A stretch of 64,000 nucleotides of DNA from an uncultured Gammaproteobacteria bacterium (lineage in GTDB: Bacteria > Patescibacteriota > Patescibacteriia > SG8-24 > DYFX01): assembly GCA_964532415.1 (NCBI GenBank), contig CAZHHN010000002.1, forward strand, positions 7,852-71,851, read 5' to 3'. Below are positions 7,147-48,593 of this stretch, in pieces. Positions within the stretch are counted from its first letter, which is position 1; each line of letters starts with the position of its first letter. Position numbers and translations under genes: made by a program. The notes beneath the pieces were generated by a model. It saw only the letters and a list, made by a program, of their open reading frames with translations. It did not search any database and was not told the DNA's origin.

Positions 7147-7195
7147 GCCACCGCAGTATACCAGAAAATCCGGCCCGCGTGATCATCGCGAATGC

Positions 7196-7225
7196 AAAAA
7201 GACCCGACGGATGTCGGGTCTTTTT
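7196..7225. terminator. Bidirectional hairpin terminator between ftsE upstream region and tRNA-Thr
   Basis: AAAAA-GACCCGAC-GGAT-GTCGGGTC-TTTTT perfect 8-bp GC-rich stem with A and T tracts. Confidence 0.7.
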
Positions 7226-7300
7226 GGAGCCACCTCGGGGAATCGAACCCCGGACCTTTGCTTTACGAAAGCACTGCTCTACCGGCTGAGCTAAGGTGGC
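7225..7300 (-). tRNA. tRNA-Thr (anticodon CGU), CCA encoded
   Basis: Reverse complement GCCACCTTAGCTCAGCCGGTAGAGCAGTGCTTTCGTAAAGCAAAGGTCCGGGGTTCGATTCCCCGAGGTGGCTCCA folds as cloverleaf. Anticodon loop TTCGTAA. Confidence 0.85.
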
Positions 7301-7301
7301 G

Positions 7302-7375
7302 TGGAGCGGGTAACGGGAATCGAACCCGTCTCTCAACCTTGGGAAGGTCGCATACTACCGATGTACGATACCCGC
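7302..7375 (-). tRNA. tRNA-Gly (anticodon CCC), CCA encoded
   Basis: Reverse complement GCGGGTATCGTACATCGGTAGTATGCGACCTTCCCAAGGTTGAGAGACGGGTTCGATTCCCGTTACCCGCTCCA. Anticodon stem CGACC/GGTTG, loop TTCCCAA, T-arm ACGGG-TTCGATT-CCCGT. Confidence 0.8.
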
Positions 7376-7431
7376 GCGATCGGGCGCGCGTCAATGGTAG
7401 CCGATCGGCCGGATTTTTCCAAGAGCGGCGG

Positions 7432-8364
7432 CTATCGCACGAACACGATGATCGAGGCCGACTTTTTCTGGCTTTCGAGATAATCGTCAAGCTGGATCGG
7501 GCGGACGAGGATCTCCAGCAGGTGGACCTTGGCGACCTGGCCGTTCGCTTCCTGCCGGTCGACGACGCGCAGCACGTGATACCCGAACGCGCTCTTGATC
7601 ACGCCGCTGGTTTCGCCCGGCTTGAGGGCGAAGGCGGCCGTCTCGACTTCCGGAGGAAGCAGCCCGCGGCCGATCAGGCCCCGATCGCCGCCGGACGGCG
7701 CGATGGCGCGGTCTTCGCTGTACGAGGCCGCCACGTCTTTAAAAGATTTTCCCGCCCGGAGTTCCGCCAAAGCCGCTTCGGCCTTCTTCCGGTTCTCGGC
7801 ATTGAGCGCCTCGTCGGATTGGACGGCGCGCTCCAGCTGCTGGCGCACAAGAAAATCGTGGAGAATGCCTGTTTTGAACTGCGACGGACGGAGGTCGTAC
7901 ATGCGCCGAAGGGTATCCGACGCGCGCGCTTCGGCCTTGGCCTTGCCGGTGGGAGCGGCGAGTGCGGACTGGTCAAGGATAGTGGCGTCGTAGGCCCGGT
8001 CGGCGTCTTCACTGGTCACGACGATGCCGTAGCGGGCGGCCAGCGATTCGGCCAGCCGATCCTTGATCAGCTGGTCGAGCACGCGCCGCTTCAGCTCCGC
8101 TTCATCCGGAAAAACCGAACCGCTCACGGCCGTCGCCTGCTGATCGCGATAAAACCGCTCAAGCGCCTGGAGATGATCCTGGAAATCGGCATAGCGGATC
8201 ACCTTGCCGTTCACGATGGCGGCCGGGTACGGCAGCACTTTGGTCACGACCTCGGCCACTCCGCCATGCCACTGATATCGGTACAGGCAGAAGCCGAAAA
8301 CCGTCGTGGCGATCAAAAAAACGGCGGCGGCGATCGCCCACACCCGGCGGGGCGACAACGGCAT
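7432..8364 (-). CDS. SurA/PrsA-like parvulin-type peptidyl-prolyl isomerase, membrane anchored
   Basis: N-terminal TM (MPLSPRRVWAIAAAVFLIATTVF). C-terminal PpiC/parvulin motif GVIKSAFGYHVLRVVDR. Alternative start 8403. Confidence 0.65.
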   Translation of the reverse strand: MPLSPRRVWAIAAAVFLIATTVFGFCLYRYQWHGGVAEVVTKVLPYPAAIVNGKVIRYADFQDHLQALERFYRDQQATAVSGSVFPDEAELKRRVLDQLIKDRLAESLAARYGIVVTSEDADRAYDATILDQSALAAPTGKAKAEARASDTLRRMYDLRPSQFKTGILHDFLVRQQLERAVQSDEALNAENRKKAEAALAELRAGKSFKDVAASYSEDRAIAPSGGDRGLIGRGLLPPEVETAAFALKPGETSGVIKSAFGYHVLRVVDRQEANGQVAKVHLLEILVRPIQLDDYLESQKKSASIIVFVR

Positions 8365-8377
8365 TTTGAGAACGGCT

Positions 8378-8809
8378 TCAGGCGCGTTTTCGGGCAGCGG
8401 CATAGGCTTCGTAGGCTTTGGGATCGACGAACAGTGTCCACCATTTCCGGGCATTTGACCAGCCGCCGGCTTCAGCCGCACCCGGCATTCCGGCCGTTCC
8501 ACCGGCTTCGGCCGCACCGGTCGGCTTTTTCAGAACGACGACCTGTTCGCCATCCCTGCGAAGCCCGAGCTTCAGACGCGCCTCGCGTTCGAGATATTCT
8601 CCGTTCTGGAGCGAAGCTTCGATCGAAGACAGTTGGAAGTTCCGCACCTGCAAACGATCGGATTCTTGTTTCAGGGTACGGATCTCGGCGTCAATCTGCC
8701 GCGAGCGCAGGACCTCGCGGGCGAAAGCGATGCCCGAAAGGACACCCGCGCAGAGCAGCCCGGCGACAAGCCAGCCGAAACGACTTTTGGATGGCGACGC
8801 CCGTTTCAT
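8378..8809 (-). CDS. FtsB/DivIC-like septum formation initiator (coiled-coil, single TM)
   Basis: MKRASPSKSRFGWLVAGLLCAGVLSGIAFA TM then coiled coil (EIRTLKQESDRLQVRNFQL). ATGA overlap with murE stop at 8806-8809. Confidence 0.55.
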   Translation of the reverse strand: MKRASPSKSRFGWLVAGLLCAGVLSGIAFAREVLRSRQIDAEIRTLKQESDRLQVRNFQLSSIEASLQNGEYLEREARLKLGLRRDGEQVVVLKKPTGAAEAGGTAGMPGAAEAGGWSNARKWWTLFVDPKAYEAYAAARKRA

Positions 8810-10167
8810 GGATGGACTTCGTCGCGGCTGCCGAGTTTCTCCCGCAGGCATTCGCGCGCCGCCTGCCGCTCGTCCCAGGGACGGAGCTTCCCGCCGCGCC
8901 CGACGATCGCCTGCTCGGCACCCTTGCCGGTCAGCAGTACGACATCTCCAGACCTCGCCAGATCGACGGCCTTCATGATCGCCTCGCGGCGGTCGGCGAT
9001 CCTGAACAAGGTCTCCCCTTCCTTCTTCCCGGCCTCGCGCGCGCCGGCGGCAACCTGATCGATGATCGCCTGCGGGTCGTCATCGTAGGGATCTTCATTC
9101 GTGACGATCACCACGTCGGCCGTTCCGCCAGCCAGGCGTCCGAGGATGGGGCGGCGGGCGACGTCGCGGCCTCCGCCGGCCGAACCGAGCACATGCAGGA
9201 TGCGCCGATGCGGCAGGCGTTCGATGGCGGAGTAGAGCTGGCGGAGCGATTCCGGTTCCGGCGCGTAATCGACGATGACGGTGAAATCCTGGCCTTCGTC
9301 GATTCTCTCGAAACGGCCGGGCACGCCGGTGACCTTGGCGAGCGCCCGCGCCATGACCTCGAGCGCCACGCCCTGCGACAATCCGACCGAAACGGCCGCC
9401 AGCGCGTTCAGCACATTATACCGGCCCGGCATTTTCACATCGAAACGCGTATCGCGCACCGTGAAGACCGAGGTATCGGGGTGCAATCCGACGTTCACGC
9501 CTTTCACGATCGCCATCGGCCAGGCGGCCAGCCCGGCCGGCTGCGCCGCACCATCGGCCAGGAAGCCGTATTTCTTGTCCGCTGGCGGTTCAAGAAACTC
9601 TTTCGCGTATTCCGACTCGAGATTCGCGATCGCGACTTTCTTGACGTCGCCGCGCATCGGCAGCGATTTTCGCCTGTGCCGCATCAATTGATGGAAAAGC
9701 TTGAGTTTGGCGCGCTTATAGTTTTCGAAACCATCGTGCGCCTCGATATGCTCCGGCGTGAGATTGGTGAAAACCACCACGTCGTACTCGATGCCGAAAT
9801 GACGGAACTGATCGAGACCCTGCGAAGACGTTTCGATGACGGCGTAGCGGCAGCCGGCTTCGGCCATGCGATGCAGCATCTTCTGCAGAAAGAAGCGTCC
9901 CGGCATCGTCATCTTCATGGCGTTGACGATTTCCTCGCCGGCAACGCGGAAATTGACGGTCGACGTCAGACCGACCTTCTCCCCCGCCTCTTCCAAGATG
10001 CGGGCGATCATGTTCACGACCGTCGTTTTCCCGTTGGTGCCGGTCACTCCGATCACGATCATCCGCCGCGACGGCCAGGCGTACCAGGCGGCCGCAAGAT
10101 AGGCCAAGGCGAAATGGTAGGCCTGGAGCAGTGGCTTGGGAATGAAGGCTCTGAGCCGGGAAAGCAT
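8806..10167 (-). CDS. murE: UDP-N-acetylmuramoyl-L-alanyl-D-glutamate--2,6-diaminopimelate ligase (MurE-type Mur ligase)
   Basis: GVTGTNGKTT P-loop, VIETSSQGL, C-terminal VVIVTNEDPYDDDPQAI (MurE DNPR-like). Start chosen at MLSRLRAFIP (10167). Confidence 0.8.
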   Translation of the reverse strand: MLSRLRAFIPKPLLQAYHFALAYLAAAWYAWPSRRMIVIGVTGTNGKTTVVNMIARILEEAGEKVGLTSTVNFRVAGEEIVNAMKMTMPGRFFLQKMLHRMAEAGCRYAVIETSSQGLDQFRHFGIEYDVVVFTNLTPEHIEAHDGFENYKRAKLKLFHQLMRHRRKSLPMRGDVKKVAIANLESEYAKEFLEPPADKKYGFLADGAAQPAGLAAWPMAIVKGVNVGLHPDTSVFTVRDTRFDVKMPGRYNVLNALAAVSVGLSQGVALEVMARALAKVTGVPGRFERIDEGQDFTVIVDYAPEPESLRQLYSAIERLPHRRILHVLGSAGGGRDVARRPILGRLAGGTADVVIVTNEDPYDDDPQAIIDQVAAGAREAGKKEGETLFRIADRREAIMKAVDLARSGDVVLLTGKGAEQAIVGRGGKLRPWDERQAARECLREKLGSRDEVHP

Positions 10168-10385
10168 GGGATCAGGATAGCATATGCGCGAAAAGGCATC
10201 TGGCTGTGTCTCCGGAGGCTTGCACATTTCTCCTTGACGCAGAGATTAATTTCATGCTATCGAATACCCATGGTTACGCCGCCCAACCCGGGCAAGCGGC
10301 CAGCGGCAGACAATGCGGCTGTACGCTTCTCCGGGCGGCGGCGTCCATGCCATCCCGCCTCCGTCCCGAAAGGAAACGCCTCCGC

Positions 10386-10763
10386 ATGGACGATGACACC
10401 GAATGGCGATATCCCGGCGAGATTGATGATGCCTATCGGGAAAGTATCCGCGAGCGCTTCACTTGGACAACCGTCCTGACGGCGCTGAAGATCCCGTACG
10501 AACTCAGCGGCGAACGGAGAAACCGCATCAAGCTGCTGTGCATCTTCCATGCGGAGAAGACACCTTCTCTGCTCTTCTATCCGGATGGCGGCTTCATCTG
10601 TTTCGGCTGCCAGCAGCAGGGCGACATCGCGCAATTCGTCTTCCTCTGGTTCGACAAGACCTTTCCTGCGCTGAACTGCACCGGCGTTCCGAAAAAGGCG
10701 CTCGATGATTTCTTCGCTTCGTGCGCGAAAAAGAATCCGCAACAACTTGATCTTCCGATCTGA
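10386..10763 (+). CDS. Standalone primase-type CHC2 zinc-finger protein (no TOPRIM/catalytic domain)
   Basis: CIFHAEKTPSLLFYPDGGFICFGCQQQGDIAQFV matches DnaG zf-CHC2 (CxxH-x17-CxxC). SD AAAGGAAA before ATG 10386. In-frame alternative starts at 10254 (ATG) and 10206 (GTG). Confidence 0.6.
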   Translation: MDDDTEWRYPGEIDDAYRESIRERFTWTTVLTALKIPYELSGERRNRIKLLCIFHAEKTPSLLFYPDGGFICFGCQQQGDIAQFVFLWFDKTFPALNCTGVPKKALDDFFASCAKKNPQQLDLPI

Positions 10764-10795
10764 ATGCGATCGGGTTCCATATGGGGCTCGATTTT

Positions 10796-11602
10796 TTATA
10801 AAATCTGGAAACGTTTCTGAAAAAACTCCTCCATTATGTATTTATACATCATGAAAAGAGTCGGAATTACCAAACGTTGATTGTCCAATAAGTTCGCAAA
10901 AACAAAACCGACCATAAACTCCACCTGTAGAGCATCCATTCCTGTAAAGCTGGATGGCAGCACCAATTTGGCGAAAGTCGCACCATCAACTAACGGTCCT
11001 TCTAGCATTTCTACTGGACTTTTTCCAGATTTGTGAAACGTGACGTAAGAATCGTCTTCAACTTGTGCGCCCAAACTTAAAACCTTCGCACCCGTAGCAA
11101 TCACATGTAGTGTTCTGTGCTTATCCTTGTCTGAAAGTTCTCGAAGTATGGTGAGCGGATGATAACCGATAACGCCAGCCCCCATGAACGGTTGAACTTG
11201 TAAAAAGACTTCCAAGAATTTTTTAGGGATACCAGGCAGTTTTTTCTTTACACCCTCAGAAAATTTTTCTTGATTTTCACAGATAGGAAAGTATATCTGT
11301 TTCTGCTGTAATTCAGAAAGATTTTTGAAGTCGCTATAATGGCTCACCGTCTGCCAAGCTAGGTTGTCCAAAGCTGCTCTCAAATGATGAATAGTTTCGC
11401 TCAATAACAATGGAATTTGTTTCGGGATCACAGTCCGAGAAGCCCATCTCCAAGAGATAATCTTATTCTCATGATCAGTTTCACGAATAATGTTTGTAGT
11501 ATTAAACTTGGAGCCATAAGCATGCAGAATGTCGTTTATTTCACGCATTCTGATTTCCGCTTGAGCCAAACGATCAGCGGTGTCTTGAAACAAGACTGAC
11601 AT
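10796..11602 (-). CDS. AT-rich orphan protein (268 aa), function unknown; candidate accessory/defence gene
   Basis: ORF of ~40% GC inside a ~66% GC locus. Begins 3 nt after the murD stop. No recognisable catalytic motif. Confidence 0.7.
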   Translation of the reverse strand: MSVLFQDTADRLAQAEIRMREINDILHAYGSKFNTTNIIRETDHENKIISWRWASRTVIPKQIPLLLSETIHHLRAALDNLAWQTVSHYSDFKNLSELQQKQIYFPICENQEKFSEGVKKKLPGIPKKFLEVFLQVQPFMGAGVIGYHPLTILRELSDKDKHRTLHVIATGAKVLSLGAQVEDDSYVTFHKSGKSPVEMLEGPLVDGATFAKLVLPSSFTGMDALQVEFMVGFVFANLLDNQRLVIPTLFMMYKYIMEEFFQKRFQIL

Positions 11603-11605
11603 TGT

Positions 11606-13036
11606 TCAACTCAACTTCTTTACTACATTACGGAACTGCTCCCCCCGATCGAATTCGTTGACGAACAACCCGAACGACGCGCAGCCCGGCGAGAGCAGCA
11701 CCGCCTCACCTTTTTTCGCGGCGCGCGTCGCGTGCGCCACCGCCTTATGCATTGAAGAAACGACCTCAGCCGGCCGCATGCCGGCTTTTTTCAGCGCCGC
11801 AGCCATTTTCGGCGTGGCTGTGCCTTCGAACAGAATGATTTCTTTCGCGAACCGTTTCGCCGCTTTCGCCCATGGCCCGAATTGCAGCGCCTTGTCGGCG
11901 CCGCCGGCGATCAGCACGCCTTTCTTTTTCTTAAAAATCGTCTCCATGGCGGCGACCGAGGCTTCGGGCGTGGTGGCGGCGGTATCGTTCCAATAGCCCA
12001 CGCCACGCACGTCGCGGACATGCTCAAGACGGTGCGGCACGCCTTTGAAATTCCGCAGGGATTTTTGGATCGCCGCGGGCCTGGCTCCGCGCAAAAATGC
12101 GGCTCCGCCGGCCAGAAGCGCGTTCCAAAGATTGTGTTCCCCCGGCAGCCGCACGTCCCCGGCATCGAACAGGACCGTCTCGATGCCCTGCGCGCGAACG
12201 ACCGCCTTCCGCCTGCGGAAAAAAACGGCGTTCTGATCGCCCGGCACCGGCTTCATCGACGCCCAGAAGCGTTCGCCGCGGACGCGCGCGCCCATTTTTT
12301 TCGTCCAGGGATTCCCGAACGGAACGATGGCGATGTCGGTCGGCAGCTGCCAGGCATAGATCAGTTCCTTGGCGGCAGCGTAGTCGGCCATGCCGTGATA
12401 GCGGTTGAGATGATCCGGCAGGACGTTCGTGAGCACGGCGATCGACGGGCTTCTTTCCACGCTCTTCAGGCTTTCGAGCTGCCACGAAGAGAGCTCGAGC
12501 GCGACGGGCACCGCTCTTTTCGCCGGTATGGCCTCTTCGAACGGCGACGTGCGGATATTGCCGGCCACGAAGGCGCGGCCGAAGGCCGCCTGAAGCATCG
12601 CGCCGAGCAGGGATGTTACGGTCGTCTTGCCTTTGGTGCCGGAGATACCGACGATCGGCTGGGGGCAAAGCCGGAAGAACAGCGAAACATCGGACTCGAC
12701 CGGCACGCCGGCACGCCGGGCGACCGCCAGAAACCGGGAATCGCGCGGTACGGCGGGATTTTGGATCACCATGTCGGCCGTCCGGAAATCGGCGTCACGG
12801 TGCCGGCCGAGAACATAGCGGATCGGGTGCGCGTTCGTGCCGAGGGTTTTTCTCAACCGTTCCAGCTCCGAAATCGACGGCGCCAGCGCATGGCGATCCT
12901 TCAGGTCGGTGACGGTCAGACGCGCGCCCTGGCGCAGCAGCCATTTGGCCACGCCCAAGCCGCCACGGTTGAGGCCGAGACCCATGATCGTGACTTTACG
13001 ACCGAGGAATCCTTTTCCGAAGACATCAGAGGTCAT
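11606..13036 (-). CDS. murD: UDP-N-acetylmuramoylalanine--D-glutamate ligase
   Basis: N-terminal KVTIMGLGLNRGGLGVAKWLLRQGARLTVTD Rossmann, GISGTKGKTT P-loop. ATGA overlap with upstream GT2 stop. Last ~12 codons AT-rich. Confidence 0.85.
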   Translation of the reverse strand: MTSDVFGKGFLGRKVTIMGLGLNRGGLGVAKWLLRQGARLTVTDLKDRHALAPSISELERLRKTLGTNAHPIRYVLGRHRDADFRTADMVIQNPAVPRDSRFLAVARRAGVPVESDVSLFFRLCPQPIVGISGTKGKTTVTSLLGAMLQAAFGRAFVAGNIRTSPFEEAIPAKRAVPVALELSSWQLESLKSVERSPSIAVLTNVLPDHLNRYHGMADYAAAKELIYAWQLPTDIAIVPFGNPWTKKMGARVRGERFWASMKPVPGDQNAVFFRRRKAVVRAQGIETVLFDAGDVRLPGEHNLWNALLAGGAAFLRGARPAAIQKSLRNFKGVPHRLEHVRDVRGVGYWNDTAATTPEASVAAMETIFKKKKGVLIAGGADKALQFGPWAKAAKRFAKEIILFEGTATPKMAAALKKAGMRPAEVVSSMHKAVAHATRAAKKGEAVLLSPGCASFGLFVNEFDRGEQFRNVVKKLS

Positions 13037-13725
13037 ACGCGTTGCCGAAATTGGTCGGCGGAGAGGCAGGTCGCCACCAACGCCGCGCTGATCTGCCAGA
13101 TCATCTGAAGATAGGCCGCGAGGCCGCGGAAAAAACCGACCTTCTGCATCTTGCGCCGTTGCGTGACGCCTTCCGTCAACACCCGACCGTACGGCAGCCG
13201 GTTGACGCGGCAGAAACAACCGAGCGCGATTTCAACGCGGAAGCCTTCGAGAAAACGCGGCGGCACGCCTTCGAAGATTTCCCGCCTGAGCGCCCGCTCG
13301 CCGGCAATGGAAGGCAGCCGCGCGATCAGCCGCGTCACGATCGGACCCCAGTCGCGGAGTCCCGTGCACATCGCCAGACGGCCGTCGAGTACCGGCGCAG
13401 TCAGACGTTCGATGTGTGCCGGCGTGAGTCCGATCAGATCGGCGTCGCAGAATAGCAGCACGTCATGCGAAGCCGCGGCGACGCCATGCCTGAGCGCGCC
13501 GCCTTTCCCTTGGTTGCGTTCCAGGCGCAGCACGCGGTCGGCGCCGGCACGGCGCGCCGCGTCCGCCGTCCGGTCGCGCGAACCGTCATCCACCACGATG
13601 ACTTCGCCGACCGAAGCCGCGGATTTCAGGGCGCGCACGACCTCCGCAACCGTCCGCTCCTCGTTGCAGGCCGGAACGATCGCCGAAGCGCGGCGCGCTT
13701 CATCGGCCGCGGAGCGAAAGTTCAT
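13033..13725 (-). CDS. Family 2 glycosyltransferase (DPM1-like)
   Basis: AIVPACNEE..VIVVDDGSRDRT..LLFCDADL motifs of GT-A fold GT2. Confidence 0.75.
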   Translation of the reverse strand: MNFRSAADEARRASAIVPACNEERTVAEVVRALKSAASVGEVIVVDDGSRDRTADAARRAGADRVLRLERNQGKGGALRHGVAAASHDVLLFCDADLIGLTPAHIERLTAPVLDGRLAMCTGLRDWGPIVTRLIARLPSIAGERALRREIFEGVPPRFLEGFRVEIALGCFCRVNRLPYGRVLTEGVTQRRKMQKVGFFRGLAAYLQMIWQISAALVATCLSADQFRQRV

Positions 13726-14269
13726 ACAGGATCTCCTCGGCCTTGCGCAGATGGGCGCGGGCCTGGTCGTACTTCGTCCGGAGATAGCCGGAGTAATCCA
13801 TCGCATCGAGGCCGGCGATCACCCGGTCCATCCGGGTTTTCAATTCCCTGGTTTCGGCATCCCGCCCGGCCGTCGCGAAGACGGTCATGAGGCGCACGCC
13901 TTCACCGAGCGCGTCGCACAGGCCGGCGATCTGCGTTTCTTCGTCGAATCCTTCCAGAGGCGAAACGTCGCCTTTCCAGGCGAGTTGCGCGACAAAGCGC
14001 GCCTCGGCGTACTCTTCGAGCGCGGCGCGGTAGCTGCCCTCATGCGACAGGCGCGCGTTCGCCGACGCTTTCGTGCCGATCTCCGCGAAGACATGTTCCG
14101 CTTCGGTCAGAAGCCTCTTGGCTTCGGCTTCGTCGTCGCGCAGGATCGAGAAAATTGCCCGCTTTGAGCACCCCTGCGCTCTGGCGGAAAGGGCGATGAT
14201 CTCGCGGCGGGCGAGATCGAACGCTTCCTGTTCGGTTTTCAGACGGGCGAGGAAATCTGCGGTCGGCAT
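13700..14269 (-). CDS. Translin-family protein (all-alpha)
   Basis: C-terminus LRKAEEILYELSLRGR resembles translin LKKLENVVYDLSIRG. DEETQIAGLCDALGEGVRLMT resembles translin DDIFLLGVLHEDADLKLNL. Confidence 0.45.
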   Translation of the reverse strand: MPTADFLARLKTEQEAFDLARREIIALSARAQGCSKRAIFSILRDDEAEAKRLLTEAEHVFAEIGTKASANARLSHEGSYRAALEEYAEARFVAQLAWKGDVSPLEGFDEETQIAGLCDALGEGVRLMTVFATAGRDAETRELKTRMDRVIAGLDAMDYSGYLRTKYDQARAHLRKAEEILYELSLRGR

Positions 14270-14343
14270 AGCCTTGGCAGAATAGCGGGATCGTAGCCGG
14301 AAATCAAGAACGAAAAGAAAAACAGCGGCACAGGCCGCTGCCG

Positions 14344-15915
14344 TCAGACGTGATTCCAAGTGGCCGCTTCCCCGGTCGGAAGAAAGAAACGGTCGGCCTG
14401 ATGATCGTAGTGGAGAAGCCGCACATGCACATCCGTCGTACCGTCCTCCTCCTGATACACCAGGGTTTCGACGGGCGCGAGCCGAAAGGACGTTTCGTCC
14501 CGATATTCAGCGGTGGCTTGCCTCCAGAGCAGGTGGAGGATGACGAGCGTGACCACCGGCCAACGAAACATCGCCAGCGGCGAGACCACCAGCAGCAGGA
14601 AAAGTCCCGCTGAAAGGAGGGCATAACCCGCCGTCACTGCGCAGGCTTTACGAGGCACGTGTACCCAATGATAGCCGATGTGCCGGAAGAAGGTTTCGAC
14701 CGGCGTCCAGCGGGTCCGGCAGCGCACCTCCGGCATGAAGGTTCGCACCTCCAGGCCCGCCAATCCGCTGTTGTAGTACATAACCGTCCGATCGCGGAAC
14801 GGGTATGTTTCAACCTTGCGTCCATGCGTGTGGGCGCCGACCAAGTGACGAATCCGGGGATGCGCGTCGAGAAACGCGCGAAGATGTTTCTCGTACCGAT
14901 CCGGCCCCATCGTATTCAAGACAACGATCACGGACTCCCAGAGGCGCAGCAGGCCGTCACGGAAATACTGCAGCACATCCACGCCCGCAACGATGACAAC
15001 GACCAGGCACAGCCGCAGCAGGATATGGAAGATGCTTTGCGGCTGCCGGGCGAAGCCCATCGCGTAGGTCGCGCCATGATCGGCGCGGCGGTTGATGTCC
15101 CTGAAGTAATGGCGTTTCAACCACATGCCGAGGCTGGCATGCAGGCAGGAGGCCAGACGCACGTTCAAGATCTTCACTTTCTTGCCGAACCAAGGCGTCA
15201 ACGCCGCCGGAATGGAGCGCAGCGCGATGATGAAACTGACAGCGGAAATGGACACGGCGATCGCTCGACCACGGAATCCGGCAGGCAAAAGCGAGAAGGC
15301 TGACCAACTGACGATGACCGCGACGACAAGGGCCAAAAGCCCCACGAAGATGGTCGCCCTCCGACTGAGCATGACGGTCTTCTTGAACGCCTTGGCGATC
15401 GGCGGATCGGCGTTCCAGGGATCGAAGGCGTGCCCATGCAGGTGCAAGACCGTCTCCCCGACCGGCCAACCGTCCTCGTGGAAGGTGACGCGGCCGGACG
15501 GTTCCAGCGGTGCGAGCGCCCGTTCGATAAGCTCGCGAACGCGTGGCCAGCGCATTTCCATGTCGTGATTGCCGGGGATGATCCGGCAGCTCAGTTTGGG
15601 ATAGCGCAAAAGGAATTCGCGCAGCCCGGAGAAATACCCAGGGTGCGCCCTCAGGATCGCTTCGGCCTTGGCGACCGCCGCCTCTTCGGTCGGCACGACG
15701 CCATACTCTCCGTTGAAGGGCGCGGCCAGCAAATCAAGCCAATCGCCCAGAAACACCAGATCGTATTCAACATCTGGCCCGAAGACGCCAGTATGCGTCT
15801 TGAGCATGGCGAGATAGGCACGCTCGATTTCCTGAGGAAAATCTTCAAGCCTGGCGTCACCTGCCCCGAGGTGTTTATCGCCCAGCGAAATCGCTACTCT
15901 GATCAATTTTCGCAT
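14344..15915 (-). CDS. Calcineurin-like metallophosphoesterase with C-terminal multi-TM membrane domain
   Basis: ISLGDKHLG and IIPGNHDME metallophosphatase motifs, several hydrophobic helices downstream. Start MRKLIRVAISLGD. Confidence 0.65.
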   Translation of the reverse strand: MRKLIRVAISLGDKHLGAGDARLEDFPQEIERAYLAMLKTHTGVFGPDVEYDLVFLGDWLDLLAAPFNGEYGVVPTEEAAVAKAEAILRAHPGYFSGLREFLLRYPKLSCRIIPGNHDMEMRWPRVRELIERALAPLEPSGRVTFHEDGWPVGETVLHLHGHAFDPWNADPPIAKAFKKTVMLSRRATIFVGLLALVVAVIVSWSAFSLLPAGFRGRAIAVSISAVSFIIALRSIPAALTPWFGKKVKILNVRLASCLHASLGMWLKRHYFRDINRRADHGATYAMGFARQPQSIFHILLRLCLVVVIVAGVDVLQYFRDGLLRLWESVIVVLNTMGPDRYEKHLRAFLDAHPRIRHLVGAHTHGRKVETYPFRDRTVMYYNSGLAGLEVRTFMPEVRCRTRWTPVETFFRHIGYHWVHVPRKACAVTAGYALLSAGLFLLLVVSPLAMFRWPVVTLVILHLLWRQATAEYRDETSFRLAPVETLVYQEEDGTTDVHVRLLHYDHQADRFFLPTGEAATWNHV

Positions 15916-24818: not shown

Positions 24819-27539
24819 TTACTGGATGCGGATCTCGTCGAAGAACATGGTCGTGGCCGCGTCAGTCTGGAACAGGATCGAATACGGGAAGTTCCCGCCG
24901 GTGAAACCGAGCGCGGAGAACGGGATCTCGACCCGATACCAGGCATTCGCGGCGATGGCATGTCCCGGTACGTAGTCGATCAGGTTGACCTGACCGAACA
25001 GCTGGCCCGTGGACTGGTCGGCCAGCTTGATGGTCACGTTCTGGCCGCCGGTCGATCCACCATGGACCACGAACTGCAGTTTGGCGACCGTGCCGATGCT
25101 GGCTGCAGGGTACCTTTGGAGGTTGAATCCCCTGCCGGCACCGAAGAAAAGAACCTTGAGCGATTCGCTGCCGAGAAAGGTCTTTTCCTCGGAGAGGTTG
25201 ACGTCGCTGTTGGCCATATCGACGTACCAGCCGGGTCCGAAATAGTCAGCGTAGACGGGCGGTTTGAGAGCGACGTCCTGGAATCGCACTTCGTCGAAGT
25301 ACATGGTGGTGGCGACGTCGCTCATGACGGCGAAACCGCCGACGGCCAGTCCGGTCAGGCCCAGCGAGGCCAGAGGGACGTCGGCGAGGTACCAGGTATT
25401 GGCGGCAAGAGTGCCGCCCGGAACGTACTTGAGCAGGCTGTCCTGCCCGATCAAGCCGCCGGAAGTGTCATAGAGCTGCACCGTGGGGTGTTGACCGCCG
25501 GTCGGGCCACCGTTGACCGCGAAGCGCAGCCTGGTGATCGAGCCCGCGTCGACCGAGGACGGGTTGGCCAGATACAGCCCGCCCCAAGCCGCATAGGCGA
25601 CCTTGATGGCGCTGCTGCCGAGATACACTTGCTCGGTGGAGTTCAGGGTCCTGGTAGACCCCCATGACCAATCCTCCCAATTGGCGGCGAGGGAATCCCC
25701 ATAGGCCGCCGCCGGGAGCCAGACGTCCTGAAAGCGCGCTTCGTCGAAGTACATGGTGGTGGCGACGTCGCTTTCGATGGCGAAGCCGCCGATCGCCGTG
25801 CCGGCGAGGCCGAGCGAAAGGAGCGGGATATCCGCGAGATGCCAGGTATTCGCCGCGAGGGCGCCGCCCGGAACGTACTTGAGCAGGTTGTCCTGTCCGA
25901 TCAGGGCGCCCGCCGTGTCGTAGAGCTGGACGATCGGATGTTGGCCGCCCGTCGCGCCTCCATTGACGGCGATACGGAGCCGCGTCGCGCTGCTGACCGT
26001 CGCTCCGGACGGGGTAGCCAGGAAGAGCCCGCCCCAGGCGGCGAAGACGACCTTGATCGCCTTGGCACCGAGGTACACGCGCTCCGTCGAGCTCAGCGTC
26101 CTCGTCGAACCCCACGACCAATCCTGCCAACCCGAGGCCAGGGCGTCCGCGTAAGCGGAGATGGTATACCAGCCCGGTCCGGGAGGGTTGTTCGTGATGG
26201 TCAGTCCGCAATTCACGCCCGAGATGGACGAGACCTGCGCCCCCGAATAGAGATGGACGTGGATCGTGCTGTCGCCCTGGCCGCCCTTCCACCACATGCA
26301 GCCGTTCTCGAAACTCTGGAACGAGGCGACCGGGGCGGAATCGGGCGCATTTTCGACGCAGACATCATTCAGGTTCGCCGGCTTCTCTTCGCCTTTAGGC
26401 GCTCCCAGCAAGGCCAGGCCGCCGAGCGGACCGTTGTCGGCGGGAGGCTGAATGCACTTGTAGGCGCCCCAGAACCCGTCGTGGATGAAATAGGCCTTCT
26501 TGTCGGTCGCGTTGTAGACGATGGCGGTTTGGCCGTCGGTGCCGTAGCGGGTGCTCGCGTCAGGATTCAAGAAGTCCTGGACCTTCACTCCGCGGACGTC
26601 ATGGACGAAGGCCGTGCCGCCGTTATCGAAGGCGCCGCCCAGGCTTTTGGTGACGTTGCCGTTCGAATCTTTGTTCAGGCCTCTTACCCAAGCATCGAAG
26701 AAGGACTGGCTGTAGCCCTTTCCGAGGTATCCCTGGCTGGCATCGACGCCCGGCGGTCTTACCCAGCTGCGTCCCGACGCGTTGAGATAGGACCCGGGTG
26801 GGACGAAACCGTTTGCTCCTAGAGCGCAGGACGAAGGCAGGGTCGGGCCGGGTTTTTGCGATGCACTTGGACAATAGGACCGCCCGAAGTCGCCGCTTGG
26901 CACTGTGGTGCCGGGCCGTACGCCAAAGTGAAGATGATCGGCAGAAATTACAGAGCCACCAGTTACGTTCCGATACCGTCCAATGATTCCTAAGACCTGC
27001 CCGGGAATTACTTTTCCCGCCGTCGCTGACACCGGTCCCGTACCGCTGCGAAAGGTCGTGGAATACACCAGGTGCCCGTACATGACGACGAATGGCGTTC
27101 CGTGGTCGTCGTAGTGCTGCACTAGTAGGGCCATGTTGCAGGTGTTTGTTCCTGGCTCGTTTTTAGCAGGGTCAGGGTTGTTGTAATCATAACCCCATCC
27201 TGATGGACAGTTCGCACTCGTGTCCTGCGTCGCGCTTTGATAGATGGCAGTTCCTGCGGCCACCGAATACACGGAGGTACCGCGAGAAGCAATCATGTCA
27301 TTCCCAGTATGACAATGATCTGTAATGTAGGGGCCTAATGGACCGCAAGCGCCGAAGTTCCCGTCCGTCCAGGAGGTCACGCTATCCATCGGATAGGTGA
27401 ATCCGTTGGAGGCTGCCGATAGGGCGAATACCCCCTGACCAAGCCGGTCGGCATCATGCCCCGCGTCGTCAGTGCAGGTCACCGCGACCAATGCACCGCT
27501 GATCAATACTGCCTTTCGTATCCGATTCCATACTCTCAT
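24819..27539 (-). CDS. Large secreted protein: N-terminal M23-like peptidase domain plus three tandem ~150-aa beta-rich repeats (putative glycan-binding)
   Basis: AGGAG SD 6 nt before ATG 27539. Signal peptide MRVWNRIRKAVLISGALVAVTCTD. HTGNDM and ADHLHFGVRP M23 motifs. Repeats share WGGL.LA..S...TRLRFAVNGG.TGGQ..VQLYDT.G.LIGQD.LLKYVPGG.LAANTW.LAD.PL.SLGL.G.A.GGF...SDVATTMYFDE.RFQD. Confidence 0.8.
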   Translation of the reverse strand: MRVWNRIRKAVLISGALVAVTCTDDAGHDADRLGQGVFALSAASNGFTYPMDSVTSWTDGNFGACGPLGPYITDHCHTGNDMIASRGTSVYSVAAGTAIYQSATQDTSANCPSGWGYDYNNPDPAKNEPGTNTCNMALLVQHYDDHGTPFVVMYGHLVYSTTFRSGTGPVSATAGKVIPGQVLGIIGRYRNVTGGSVISADHLHFGVRPGTTVPSGDFGRSYCPSASQKPGPTLPSSCALGANGFVPPGSYLNASGRSWVRPPGVDASQGYLGKGYSQSFFDAWVRGLNKDSNGNVTKSLGGAFDNGGTAFVHDVRGVKVQDFLNPDASTRYGTDGQTAIVYNATDKKAYFIHDGFWGAYKCIQPPADNGPLGGLALLGAPKGEEKPANLNDVCVENAPDSAPVASFQSFENGCMWWKGGQGDSTIHVHLYSGAQVSSISGVNCGLTITNNPPGPGWYTISAYADALASGWQDWSWGSTRTLSSTERVYLGAKAIKVVFAAWGGLFLATPSGATVSSATRLRIAVNGGATGGQHPIVQLYDTAGALIGQDNLLKYVPGGALAANTWHLADIPLLSLGLAGTAIGGFAIESDVATTMYFDEARFQDVWLPAAAYGDSLAANWEDWSWGSTRTLNSTEQVYLGSSAIKVAYAAWGGLYLANPSSVDAGSITRLRFAVNGGPTGGQHPTVQLYDTSGGLIGQDSLLKYVPGGTLAANTWYLADVPLASLGLTGLAVGGFAVMSDVATTMYFDEVRFQDVALKPPVYADYFGPGWYVDMANSDVNLSEEKTFLGSESLKVLFFGAGRGFNLQRYPAASIGTVAKLQFVVHGGSTGGQNVTIKLADQSTGQLFGQVNLIDYVPGHAIAANAWYRVEIPFSALGFTGGNFPYSILFQTDAATTMFFDEIRIQ
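24822..26180. repeat. Three in-frame tandem DNA repeats, period ~450 bp, inside giant gene
   Basis: GACGTCCTGGAATCGCACTTCGTCGAAGTACATGGTGGTGGCGACGTCGCT at ~25272 recurs at ~25722. A more diverged copy is near 24830. Confidence 0.8.
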
Positions 27540-27654
27540 GCTGATCTCCTCGATGGCTCCTGTTTTGAGCCGACGAGAGGGTATCACCACGCACCCAAAC
27601 ATGTCGAATGTGCACCCACGAACGGCCTCATCGACCCCGAGGCAAGCATCTACT

Positions 27655-27681
27655 CAAAAACCCGTCCCAAAGGGGCGGGTT
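27655..27681 (-). terminator. Rho-independent terminator after low-GC orphan gene
   Basis: Minus-strand AACCCGCCCC-TTT-GGGACGGGTT followed by TTTTTGAG. Confidence 0.65.
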
Positions 27682-27704
27682 AATGAATCTGGGTTCGTCC
27701 AAGA

Positions 27705-28448
27705 TCACTTGGTGAACACGATGGTGCCAAAGATCTGTTTCACCGTTGGCGACAAGGCGTCATATTCCTTATCATCCAGTTCAAAATCATAGATCCGGCT
27801 TGTTCCCGAAATCAGATGATATCTCATGGTGATCTTGCCATCGGGATCACTTCCTTTCTCAGCAATTTCGTAGGCTATCTGGCCACCCAGAGAAATCTTT
27901 TTGACCAACCAGGAATACCCACCCTCCGTTTGAAACCGAGCGGAATCGAAAAGGTCCGATAACGAATTTTCGTCCGTCACTCGCCAGGAGCCAAGATACC
28001 CTGTCACATACGATTGAAAGTCAGGAAAGCAATCAACGTAGAGGCTTCTGTAGATTAAGTCCGCACCACCCTCCCCGAACTCCGTCCGTGACGCCGTGAT
28101 CTTCTTATTTTTCAAGATGTCTTCCGGACTGCGGATGATCGTCGCGCCGAGTTCACTGTCAGCGATCCATCCGGGCGGAAGCTGCAAATCTATTCCGCAT
28201 TTTGCAATCGTGAACGGGTTCCAACCGGGTATCGGCTCGACCGTCGTCTTTTCGGGGGACGGGACCGTCGAAGTCGCGACATCGACCGTTACCGGTGTCG
28301 GTACGGTCGGGTGCGGCGGCCTTCCGAAAAGAATGACGCCTCCGGCGATTGCCGCCGAAATCGCGACGAGTCCGATGGTTCCTGCGACGACCTTCTGACG
28401 TGCTGAATTTTGCACATGTTTACCTCTGTAATTATCGACGTCCCCCAT
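27705..28448 (-). CDS. Low-GC orphan membrane-anchored protein with Pro/Thr linker and extracytoplasmic domain
   Basis: GC ~48% versus ~66% background. Own terminator on both sides. TM VVAGTIGLVAISAAIAGGVILFG. ATG 28448 chosen (table start is a TTG). Confidence 0.55.
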   Translation of the reverse strand: MGDVDNYRGKHVQNSARQKVVAGTIGLVAISAAIAGGVILFGRPPHPTVPTPVTVDVATSTVPSPEKTTVEPIPGWNPFTIAKCGIDLQLPPGWIADSELGATIIRSPEDILKNKKITASRTEFGEGGADLIYRSLYVDCFPDFQSYVTGYLGSWRVTDENSLSDLFDSARFQTEGGYSWLVKKISLGGQIAYEIAEKGSDPDGKITMRYHLISGTSRIYDFELDDKEYDALSPTVKQIFGTIVFTK

Positions 28449-28591
28449 TATTGACGAAGATCGGATCGAGGTCAAGAGCCTCGGTTGAATGCGCGCTGAA
28501 GGAACGTCTCAAAAAGCCTAAACAAATACGGGTCCTGACAGGGGCGTTGAGCCATCCCAAGCGTCTTTCGGAAGGCCGCGAGGCCTGCGAC

Positions 28592-28615
28592 AAAAAAGAC
28601 GGCCGGGAGACCGTC
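28592..28615 (-). terminator. Rho-independent terminator after hypothetical gene 28631-29287
   Basis: Minus-strand GACGG-TCTCCCGG-CCGTC followed by TTTTTTGTCG. Confidence 0.55.
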
Positions 28616-46826: not shown

Positions 46827-47483
46827 TCATGAAGGCGACACGGCCCTATCCCGAAAGCTGCGGCCCACGGCCAATCCGATGGACGTGCCGATCAACGCGC
46901 CGGCCAGGAAATCCGAGAACCAGTGGATGCTGACCGAAACGGCCAGCCCGACATACAGGGCATAGAGCAGCGCCGGAATCTTCACCGAAGATTTTTCCCG
47001 ATACAAAACGGCCAGCGCGACCATCGTGGCGAAAGCGACGGTCGTATGCGACGAAGGCCAGCCCCAAAAGATCCCGGCACGCAGAAAGCCGAATTGGAAA
47101 TGCCCGGTGACGTCGTCCGTCAGCGCCGTGCCGAAGGTCGGGTGCGCGCGGCCGGTCAAAGCTTTGCAGGAAGAAGAAATCAACCAGCCGAGAAAAGCCG
47201 ACTGCGCAAGCGCTCCGGCCGCACGACGAAGCCACTCGTCTTTGCGAAGCCTGGCGGCCGCCAGCGCGACGAACGGCATGACGATCGGCAGCAACCCGCC
47301 CAGCAGGATGCCCGGCATCACCCATGCCCGCGGAACTCCCTGTCCGGCCGCATACCATCGCCAATCGAAGCCGGAGACGACAGCGGCATACGTCAGCGCG
47401 ATCGCCAAAAGATGGACCGGGATGAGAGGCCAGGAGAAACAGGCGAGAAGGTTGCGCCACAAATTGTAGAAGAAGACCCGCAT
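46827..47483 (-). CDS. PAP2-family phosphatase (second copy)
   Basis: GWPSSHTT and SIHWFSD motifs, 6 TM. Confidence 0.65.
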   Translation of the reverse strand: MRVFFYNLWRNLLACFSWPLIPVHLLAIALTYAAVVSGFDWRWYAAGQGVPRAWVMPGILLGGLLPIVMPFVALAAARLRKDEWLRRAAGALAQSAFLGWLISSSCKALTGRAHPTFGTALTDDVTGHFQFGFLRAGIFWGWPSSHTTVAFATMVALAVLYREKSSVKIPALLYALYVGLAVSVSIHWFSDFLAGALIGTSIGLAVGRSFRDRAVSPS

Positions 47484-47488
47484 GAAAA

Positions 47489-47899
47489 TCACCAATCGCC
47501 TTGCGGCATCCGACGGTTCCTTTTCCTTTCACCAATACGACGTTTCTTTTCCAGTCGCCTGCGCTTCTGCGACCGACTGACTTTGGTCGGCATGCGTTTC
47601 TTCTTCGGCCTGAGCGCGACTTCGACCAACTCCCGCAGCCGGCGTACGGCTGCTTCCTTGTTATGCAGCTGCGAGCGTTCGCTCTCGGCCGTCAGTACGA
47701 TTTCGTCGCGCTTGTTCAGATGCTTCCCGGCGAACGCGCGGATCAATGCCTTTTGCCCGTTCGTAAACGCCGACGAGCCGCCGACGTGCCAGCGCAGCTG
47801 CGCCTTGCTCGAGACCTTGTTGACGTTCTGCCCGCCGGGTCCGGAAGAACGGGCAAACTCAAAATGCAATTCGGATTCGGGAATGGAGGAAGCGATCAT
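47489..47899 (-). CDS. arfB: Peptidyl-tRNA hydrolase ArfB (alternative ribosome rescue factor B)
   Basis: SSGPGGQNVNKVSSK GGQ motif and basic C-terminal tail KKKRMPTKVSRSQKRRRLEKKRR. Confidence 0.75.
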   Translation of the reverse strand: MIASSIPESELHFEFARSSGPGGQNVNKVSSKAQLRWHVGGSSAFTNGQKALIRAFAGKHLNKRDEIVLTAESERSQLHNKEAAVRRLRELVEVALRPKKKRMPTKVSRSQKRRRLEKKRRIGERKRNRRMPQGDW

Positions 47900-47979
47900 A
47901 GTTTCGATCAGTGTACCAAAAACTCCCCGTGAGCGGAGCTTATAACGAATGGTTACGAAAAATGCTAGTGTAGAGGCAT

Positions 47980-48549
47980 ATGAAAATAACCGTTGCCATC
48001 GTCGCGGCACTACTGGCCATCGTCGGCAATGTTCCGTACCTACGGGATCTCCTTAAAAAGAAAGTGCAACCTCACCCGTATACGTGGTTTGTCTGGTCCA
48101 TTGTTTCATGCATTATTTTCTTCGGCCAGGTTGCAAAAGGCGCGGGCATCGGAGCGCTGCCGACGGCCGCATCCGAAATCTTTTCGATCATCATCTTTTT
48201 CTTCTCTCTTAAGTACGGCTTCAAGAACATCCGCAAGATCGACACGGTATTTTTCACCATCGCGCTGCTCGGCATCATTCCCTGGATTCTCAGCAAGGAC
48301 CCCACCGTATCCGTCATTATCGCGGTCGGCATCGATCTGACCGCCTTTGTCCCGACGATCCGAAAGACATCCAGGAACCCGGGGACCGAAGCCCCGATAC
48401 TCTACATCACGAATGTCCTGCGCCACATCCTGATGCTCTTTTCGCTCCAAGCATATAACATCGCGACGACGCTCCATTCAATCGCCATGATTACCACGAA
48501 CACGATCATGGCATTCCTCATTGTCGGCCACAAAAAAATGCTGAAGTAG
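47980..48549 (+). CDS. Low-GC orphan 7-TM integral membrane protein
   Basis: GC ~47%. GAGG SD before ATG. Seven predicted TM helices in 189 aa. Confidence 0.55.
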   Translation: MKITVAIVAALLAIVGNVPYLRDLLKKKVQPHPYTWFVWSIVSCIIFFGQVAKGAGIGALPTAASEIFSIIIFFFSLKYGFKNIRKIDTVFFTIALLGIIPWILSKDPTVSVIIAVGIDLTAFVPTIRKTSRNPGTEAPILYITNVLRHILMLFSLQAYNIATTLHSIAMITTNTIMAFLIVGHKKMLK

Positions 48550-48593
48550 GGTGCGCAATTCAACGAACTGAATTCATCGGAACGGCGACATTC

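Follow-up and report, generated by a model that had tools for sequence, protein, structure and literature searches.

The described systems closest to the gene considered here, a 268-aa open reading frame (ORF) located between murD and murE in a 64-kb stretch of DNA (64,000 nucleotides of contig CAZHHN010000002.1, assembly GCA_964532415.1; hereafter the window) from an uncultured bacterium of the Patescibacteria, include the abortive-infection (Abi) proteins that act as single genes and the passenger genes of insertion sequences. Regarding the former, HEPN-type solo Abi proteins, namely AbiD/AbiF ("Abi_2"), AbiV, AbiJ and AbiU2, are reportedly covered in the 2013 work of Anantharaman et al. Their genes resemble the family to which the window gene is assigned in having a lower guanine-plus-cytosine (GC) content than the surroundings and no partner gene, and in being carried by plasmids, prophages and transposons; at the protein level, both have a helical nuclease-like core placed beside a variable region. 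The Pfam and PADLOC models of these Abi families, instead, match none of 51 aligned members of the window family.

As for the HEPN toxins of HEPN-MNT systems (Shewanella SO_3166, PDB 5yep_B; 7ae2; 8xdj), they share no sequence or profile similarity with the family, in which the Rx4-6H motif is not conserved and the invariant D-K-H-R ends a different helix; in addition, the window gene has no adjacent MNT antitoxin gene, and its product has an extra N-terminal helix and hairpin together with a beta-rich C-terminal part of about 100 residues. The anti-phage RNase toxins RnlA/LsoA (PDB 5hy3) differ from the family in domain order and size, and the family has neither their cognate antitoxin gene nor sequence similarity to them.

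Finally, passenger genes of IS1595-family transposons are said to have been described by Siguier, Gagnevin and Chandler in 2009. Homologues of the window gene are true passengers, found inside 26-bp inverted repeats with 8-bp duplications, downstream of the transposase; the window copy differs in having no transposase, inverted repeat or duplication.

A recently acquired gene at the murD-murE junction

The murD-murE junction of the window carries a recently acquired, AT-rich, intact single gene (positions 10796 to 11602, minus strand; GC 0.40), which coincides with the deepest compositional dip in the 64 kb. The GC content of the whole window is 62.7%, with a mean of 0.627 and a standard deviation of 0.038 over 800-nt profile windows; the lowest 800-nt value, 0.405 at 10801-11600, lies about 5.8 standard deviations under this mean, and in 300-nt profile windows GC drops from 0.58-0.66 down to 0.37-0.46 over the stretch from about 10600 to 11650. 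Both profiles confirm the drop from about 66% to about 40% over some 0.9 kb reported in the initial annotation, which was made from the DNA letters of the window; codon composition gives the same picture, the GC at third codon positions (GC3) of the ORF being an extreme outlier at 0.40, compared with 0.76 for murD and 0.78 for murE. Because the composition is extreme and the gene is missing from all eight relatives with a readable murD-murE interval, the segment is foreign, as had been supposed.

Metagenome-assembled genomes of Patescibacteria supply the nearest MurE sequences (74-79% identity), and the gene order GT2-murD...murE-divIC is kept in eight relatives, with a highly variable gap between murD and murE: 1 nt in locus L006, 0.95 kb in L007, 2.1 kb in L008, about 2.9 kb in each of L010, L011 and L014, 3.3 kb in L012, and 4.2 kb in L015. 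These intervals contain native-GC polysaccharide deacetylases, a beta-lactamase-family protein, ScfRs-like proteins and ORFs without assignment. Alignment with the relatives, a check that the initial annotation had proposed, placed the 268-aa gene at this site in none of the eight, and the Zn-finger gene that neighbours it is likewise not found in their murD-murE intervals; a scan of 1.1 Mb of related Patescibacteria loci with the family profile found no member. Since the gene is missing from both the intervals and the 1.1 Mb of loci, the insertion is lineage-specific, and it lies at a clade-wide flexible spot, rather than in a rigid operon. The earlier view of a conserved operon broken into is thus not borne out: the interval ranges from 0 to 4.2 kb and holds native-GC envelope genes clade-wide, making it a variable spot inside the dcw cluster. 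The locus itself represents an ordinary type of event, namely a recent horizontal acquisition at a flexible site.

The position between murD and murE, in an interval that in relatives harbors polysaccharide deacetylases and a beta-lactamase-family protein, might suggest a native, lineage-specific accessory protein of cell-wall synthesis or division belonging to the dcw cluster. This origin is very improbable: the composition is extreme, the gene is absent from all the relatives examined, and its homologues reside on transposons, plasmids and a prophage of unrelated phyla. A housekeeping cell-wall homology was also looked for, and the protein has no similarity to Mur, MraY or other envelope families, nor does it contain a Mur_ligase or other envelope-enzyme domain according to Pfam and NCBIfam.

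Regarding the junction with murD, the sequence was read directly: the murD stop TGA (11608-11606) is followed on the minus strand by the 3-nt spacer ACA (11603-11605) and by the ATG of the foreign gene (11602-11600), within the string AAG AAG TTG AGT TGA ACA ATG TCA. This reading agrees with the tight fusion to murD, 3 nt past its stop, described initially; at the spacer position, L006 reads TGA-T-ATG, the ATG being that of murE. An abrupt 23-point change of GC in a metagenome-assembled genome could also arise if the assembler had joined an AT-rich piece of another organism; however, both junctions recur at 99.98-100% identity in contigs assembled independently from five different sequencing runs, and therefore a chimera is excluded for practical purposes; as the murD tail is moreover in frame and its spacing exact, this origin is barely credible.

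The gene upstream, murD (476 aa, UDP-N-acetylmuramoylalanine-D-glutamate ligase type; 11606-13036, minus strand; Pfam MurD-like_N, Mur_ligase_M and Mur_ligase_C), has its start set by the gene calls on identical contigs, and its product is 70-76% identical to the MurD of the relatives; it probably supplies both transcription and translational coupling to the foreign gene. Its last seven codons and stop (N V V K K L S *; 11606-11629, minus strand) form a colinear tail of low GC, the last 27 nt having a value of 0.33 versus 0.52-0.67 in the eight relatives. The initial annotation had extended the AT-rich end of murD to about 12 codons, and had taken it as rebuilt by the insertion; an AT-rich end is indeed found, limited to the last seven to eight codons (GC 0.33), and the rebuilding is not supported. 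The tail FRNVVKKLS (..EQFRNVVKKLS) is colinear with FRSEAKKLR (..DQFRSEAKKLR) and FRTVVLKLRA (..DQFRTVVLKLRA) of the relatives, equals the L006 tail in length, and matches it at 19 of 27 nt, with all the differences toward A or T; because of this colinearity, length and identity, it is homologous murD sequence shifted toward AT, and not unrelated DNA. Two origins would fit such a tail: either recombination with a donor of low GC in which the gene already followed murD, or an AT-ward change of the native tail, which is now the translation-initiation region of the new gene.

As for traces of the integration, the search of the window found no integrase, transposase or flanking direct repeat, in line with the initial annotation. 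At the gene, no IS-type inverted repeat, target duplication or adjacent DDE_Tnp_IS1595 transposase was found, and a remnant of an IS1595 element in the window was rejected on these grounds; an attC-like R' core was not seen on reading past the stop codon, a point on which no dedicated integron or integrase scan was run. A 13-nt inverted repeat (left arm 10762-10774, right arm 11644-11656, complementary at 12 of 13 positions) roughly brackets the AT-rich tract, and it was equalled by 21 of 3000 random zone pairs (0.7%); its right arm lies within the conserved murD codons N-E-F-D-R-G, and is native murD sequence that also occurs in relatives without the insertion. An inversion between the two arms was considered and rejected, since it would leave murD with a tail resembling no relative, while the present tail is the homologous one.

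The gene could be a neutral hitch-hiker, that is, a recent functionless import not yet decayed, with its position behind murD an accident of harmless integration. Consistent with this, the lack of amelioration (GC3 0.40) implies a very recent arrival, the interval of the relatives tolerates varied content, and the gene is known from one set of related samples only. On the other hand, the ORF is full length and keeps all the invariant residues of its family, the start codon is placed precisely for coupling, and five samples share the fixed junction at 99.98-100% identity, so that a functionless import is quite unlikely. If the gene were nonetheless inert, the locus would be a clean, if ordinary, case of a gene recently transferred horizontally to a variable interval, and the link between its family and IS1595 transposons, described below, would still be useful for annotation.

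Protein family and predicted fold

The window gene is a member of a protein family that is large, has no name and diverges very fast, and therefore the term orphan used for it at first does not apply. An exhaustive HMMER scan of 1.84 billion cluster representatives (clusters at 50% identity) gave 2,628 matches with E ≤ 1e-3, 68 of them with E ≤ 1e-10, and no identity to the window protein above about 40% among the matches listed; a word-indexed search, instead, retrieved only the gene itself and one weak match, and the family was found by the exhaustive scan alone. Nearly all the members have 255-290 aa, with a median of 264, close to the 268 aa of the window protein. The few named ones are "hypothetical proteins" of Actinomycetota, Gaiellaceae, Dormibacteria and Fimbriimonadaceae.

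Alignments of 51 and 151 members define the signature of the family. Over the 151 sequences, conservation is 100% for K161 and H162, 98% for D160 and D79, 96% for Q137, 95% for R75, and 86% for R163; further signature positions are an acidic residue at 69, L78, F105-P106 and Q137-P138, and the consensus is GDxxHNLRSALDHLAW ... FPI ... LPG ... QPY ... HPLxxLxxLSNxDKHR. The two segments that had been singled out as conserved-type from the window protein alone, SETIHHLRAALDNLAWQ and SDKDKHRTLH, are signature motifs of the family. Since every signature residue and the typical length are retained, the window protein looks intact. Conservation is unevenly distributed: mean pairwise identity is 33% in the core (57-166) and 15% in the C-terminal part (167-240).

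The initial annotation had recognised no motif in the protein, and the databases agree: no model of Pfam, NCBIfam, PHROG or PADLOC matches the gene or its relatives, none of the 51 members has a Pfam match at E ≤ 0.1, the window protein has no NCBIfam match, and PDB searches with sequence and profile found nothing. In the literature that could be searched, no description of the family or of its IS1595 carriage was found. The family is without name, curated model or solved relative, and it has a confident predicted fold.

This fold comes from an AlphaFold2 model built on the 51-sequence alignment, with a predicted local distance difference test (pLDDT) of 91 and a predicted template modelling score (pTM) of 0.87; the model from the single sequence reached a pLDDT of only 38. 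The predicted protein starts with a long helix (3-32) and a beta-hairpin (38-53), continues with helices at 62-89, 97-101, 111-121, 127-135 and 149-161, the last of which ends in D-K-H-R, and closes with a beta-rich part (168-235) and a C-terminal helix (245-265). The helical core, about 57-166, holds R75, D79, Q137 and D160-K161-H162-R163, and is followed by the variable beta-rich part at 167-240. Structure prediction and a Foldseek comparison had both been proposed at the outset; the former gave the confident fold just described, and the latter found no match in PDB at E ≤ 0.001 and, in BFVD, two unnamed viral proteins only. The core may be termed HEPN-like; the protein is not filed as a HEPN member because the Rx4-6H hallmark fails.

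Mobile carriage and proposed function

The recurrent home of the family is mobile DNA; in IS1595-family transposons, the gene is a passenger beside the right inverted repeat. Contexts were inspected individually for 15 homologues and, in addition, for 80 metagenome loci corresponding to 66 distinct genes. There is one strongly recurrent neighbor, a transposase of the IS1595 family (Zn_ribbon_IS1595 plus DDE_Tnp_IS1595), which invariably sits immediately upstream in the same orientation: it was found in three of the 15 contexts (L096, L098 and L102), in nine of the 66 distinct metagenome genes, and in six of the 36 genes having at least 700 bp of upstream sequence. The element in L096 (4508-6922) is delimited by perfect 26-bp inverted repeats (GGGAAGTATCCCTTCTCTGTAGAGGC) with an 8-bp duplication (GGTTTGAC), and contains, besides the family gene, the transposase and an ORF of 119 aa; that in L102 (4477-7858, 3.4 kb) also has perfect 26-bp repeats (GGGAACTATCCCTTCCAGGGAGGTAC) and an 8-bp duplication (CAAGAGGT), and in both elements the repeats begin with GGG. 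An 8-bp target duplication is a hallmark of the IS1595 family, and the related Merlin transposons of eukaryotes typically have GG at their termini (PMC8101967). Enclosing inverted repeats are also found in L171, L180 and L182. These five are complete transposons of the IS1595 family; the family gene is the last one before the right repeat, and each element has one or two further small ORFs without a Pfam match.

Other vehicles exist. An IS4-like DDE_Tnp_1 transposase lies beside the family gene in five loci (L108, L116, L117, L124 and L137), and therefore the family is carried by more than one type of transposon; AAA_25 proteins occur near the gene in three loci, and serine recombinases are found as well. 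The family is present on conjugative plasmids of Arthrobacter, Paenarthrobacter and Mycolicibacterium, and on an actinomycete integrative conjugative element (Int, Xis/HTH_17, RepSA and FtsK/SpoIIIE), where the gene is placed between a PP2C-like gene and genes for SIR2_2 and SLFN_AlbA_2 proteins, a cargo block that looks like a small defence island; another locus has a PycTM gene near the family gene. In all 13 contexts compared (13/13), the family gene has a lower GC content than its surroundings. Some homologues overlap or abut the gene upstream (L111, L171, L098 and L094). All-against-all comparison of the neighbors, in 14 and then in 93 loci, found no recurrent small partner gene, the only recurrent neighbors being transposases, recombinases and AAA_25 proteins.

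Such a distribution would also suit a function in selfish maintenance or addiction, with the protein acting as a toxin-like or post-segregational-killing factor, a transposition regulator or a helper in target choice, and the window copy being a stranded remnant that does nothing for the host. In at least nine distinct elements, whose transposases are 30-72% identical, the gene keeps one position and one orientation downstream of the IS1595 transposase, which points in this direction, as does the proximity of other members to serine recombinases and DDE_Tnp_1 transposases. A dedicated transposition factor, however, should co-evolve with its transposase, and the divergence of the passenger appears uncoupled from that of the transposase (Spearman 0.11; in one pair the transposases are 72% identical and the passengers 32%); many members, including the window copy, stand alone, far from transposases, and an antitoxin-like partner is not conserved. 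On balance, this function is unlikely.

Carriage on transposons, plasmids and a prophage, combined with rapid diversification, is equally typical of counter-defence genes, and the protein might thus serve mobile elements in anti-defence or in establishment, for instance by inhibiting or modifying some part of host immunity. The prophage member bears on this point: gp34 of the Mycobacterium prophage prophiGD13-2 belongs to the family and lies between an HNH endonuclease gene and the small-terminase gene, both of which are encoded on the other strand. In temperate phages, such a placement suggests expression from the resident prophage, and not early after entry. Moreover, a conserved cluster of catalytic appearance next to a variable, sensor-like domain fits an effector better than an inhibitor; an anti-defence role is improbable.

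The explanation favored here, if only tentatively, is that the gene is a horizontally acquired, solo mobile-element cargo gene, coding for a conflict or defence effector and expressed through murD; of its two parts, the anatomical and evolutionary one is very probable, and the defence or nuclease mechanism is put forward with more reserve than the whole. Marks of a conflict gene are the divergence of the passenger independently of its transposase, the low identity of the C-terminal part compared with the core, and the lack of a conserved partner gene. According to this mechanism, the foreign gene would have no promoter of its own and would be transcribed by read-through from murD, with its translation coupled to that of murD via TGA-ACA-ATG, in the same way as homologues abut or overlap their upstream genes. 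The protein would be a conflict effector made of one polypeptide, in which the helical core would form a HEPN-like four-helix bundle with the fixed polar cluster R75, D79, Q137, D160, K161, H162 and R163, a cluster that would most probably make up a metal-independent site of nuclease or RNase type, and the hypervariable beta-rich C-terminal part would serve as the recognition module. Such an effector would stay silent until a trigger, for instance phage infection, and would then damage nucleic acid as solo abortive-infection genes do.

Several observations weigh against this explanation. The HEPN motif Rx4-6H is not conserved: the histidine five residues after R75 is present in 64% of the 151 sequences, its equivalent is Asn in the window protein, and elsewhere in the family it is also N or Y. 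None of the 51 members matches a Pfam HEPN or Abi family, and PADLOC-DB v2.0.0 (2023) assigns no family to the window protein or to any of the 51. Among sequenced phages the family is rare (one of 50,697 records), and recognisable defence genes are found in only about three of the approximately 15 contexts with gene calls or annotation. Finally, co-transcription and translational coupling with murD are read from the spacing of the two genes alone, and the defence function is wholly inferred. The window gene can reasonably be put among the candidates for a conflict or defence function, of which there are many. A more specific version, in which the family constitutes a new type of stand-alone immunity or abortive-infection effector, with a HEPN-like fold, a different catalytic signature (R...D, Q-P and the invariant D-K-H-R) and a hypervariable sensor domain, spread widely as the standard cargo of one group of IS1595-family transposons, which would then be vehicles of defence, and here wired to the essential murD transcript in a small genome of the candidate phyla radiation (CPR), is possible but doubtful.

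If the effector explanation is true, a family of more than 2,600 clusters (at 50% identity), without name, Pfam model or solved relative, would join the single-gene conflict systems. Simple insertion sequences of the IS1595 type would routinely carry such a gene, which bears on how defence genes move between genomes; the window would be a concrete case of a Patescibacteria (CPR) genome that captured foreign cargo at a flexible spot of its cell-wall cluster.

murE, the Zn-finger neighbor and other features of the window

On the other side of the insertion, the murE-type Mur ligase (8806-10167, minus strand; Pfam Mur_ligase_M and Mur_ligase_C) likely starts at the ATG at 10167, the codon for M21 in the longest ORF. 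In most close relatives (L006, L007 and L010-L015) the alignment with murE starts at residue 21, and the resulting N-terminus, MLSRLRAFIPKPLLQAYH, agrees with the start in L006. The native leader next to murE, CATATGCTATCCTGATCCC (10168-10186, minus strand), has a -10-like TATGCT box and is conserved in relatives; L008 has the near-identical element GTATGCTATCCTGGGCCC-ATG directly before murE, and in most other relatives murE is preceded by a hairpin and then by TTTTTTTATAAGCTG-N7-ATG. In L007, L010-L013 and L015, the arrangement about 40 nt before murE consists of a hairpin with a T-run, then TATAAGCTG and, after 7 nt, the ATG; the box of both the window and L008 is TATGCTATCC. This module resembles a terminator-promoter unit with a very short or absent leader, and, since the conserved upstream element is kept, it suggests that murE has its own promoter. 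Because no minus-strand terminator was predicted between the foreign-gene stop and murE, read-through from murD across the new gene into murE is possible as well.

Between murE and the foreign gene lies a plus-strand ORF of 138 aa (10347-10763, with an open frame back to 10206) that encodes a DnaG-type CHC2 Zn finger (PF01807, E 2.1e-8, score 34.3 versus a cutoff of 24.9; motif C-x-H-x17-C-x2-C). The initial annotation had called it a divergent primase-type Zn-finger ORF: the finger is confirmed by PF01807, and the orientation is instead convergent with the AT-rich gene, and divergent from murE. It shares the CHC2 domain with DnaG-type primases and differs from them in having no TOPRIM or RNA-polymerase catalytic domain, the protein stopping 39 residues past the finger; accordingly, TIGR01391 matches at model positions 36-72 of 414 only, with a score of 30.6 against a cutoff of 283.6. 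It also resembles the small stand-alone CHC2 finger proteins of phages and mobile elements: the ORF matches phrog_11992 (a 177-aa profile) with E 4e-10, as well as primase phrogs, via the finger only. Among 5.8 billion proteins, the search for homologues retrieved only the ORF itself. A DRT system was rejected, since the PADLOC hits to DRT reverse transcriptases come from the finger alone and there is no reverse transcriptase nearby. With a GC of 0.56 and a GC3 of 0.70, the ORF is near the host and 16 GC points from the AT-rich gene; the two probably arrived at different times.

The 3' end of the Zn-finger gene is followed by a hairpin with an 11-pair stem and a T-run (10768-10803, plus strand), identified by a scan for terminator-like structures, whose T-run ends on the stop codon of the foreign gene; it looks like the intrinsic terminator of the plus-strand Zn-finger gene. 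Read on the minus strand, the hairpin has no U-run after it, and its fold is no better than that of shuffled sequence.

Two further frames overlap these genes. An ORF of 162 aa (10257-10745, minus strand), which shares the strand of murD and murE and runs antisense to the Zn-finger gene, was called in place of the latter by some gene finders; no family matches it, and it is probably an artefact of high GC. An open frame of 1095 aa (7192-10479, plus strand) runs antisense over two tRNA genes, a SurA-like gene, a DivIC-like gene and murE, and it is a clear example of the spurious long ORFs of high-GC DNA.

Elsewhere in the window there are milder GC dips (0.51-0.55) at about 27000-28600 and at 47400-48800: the first contains ORFs (256 and 134 aa) that match nothing in Pfam, and the second a protein with an RF-1 domain (47489-48010, minus strand) plus ORFs of no assigned kind. 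Finally, two genes upstream of murD there is a gene for a Translin-family protein (13700-14359, minus strand; PF01997, E 2e-9), which is unusual for a bacterium and is also called on the identical contig L001.

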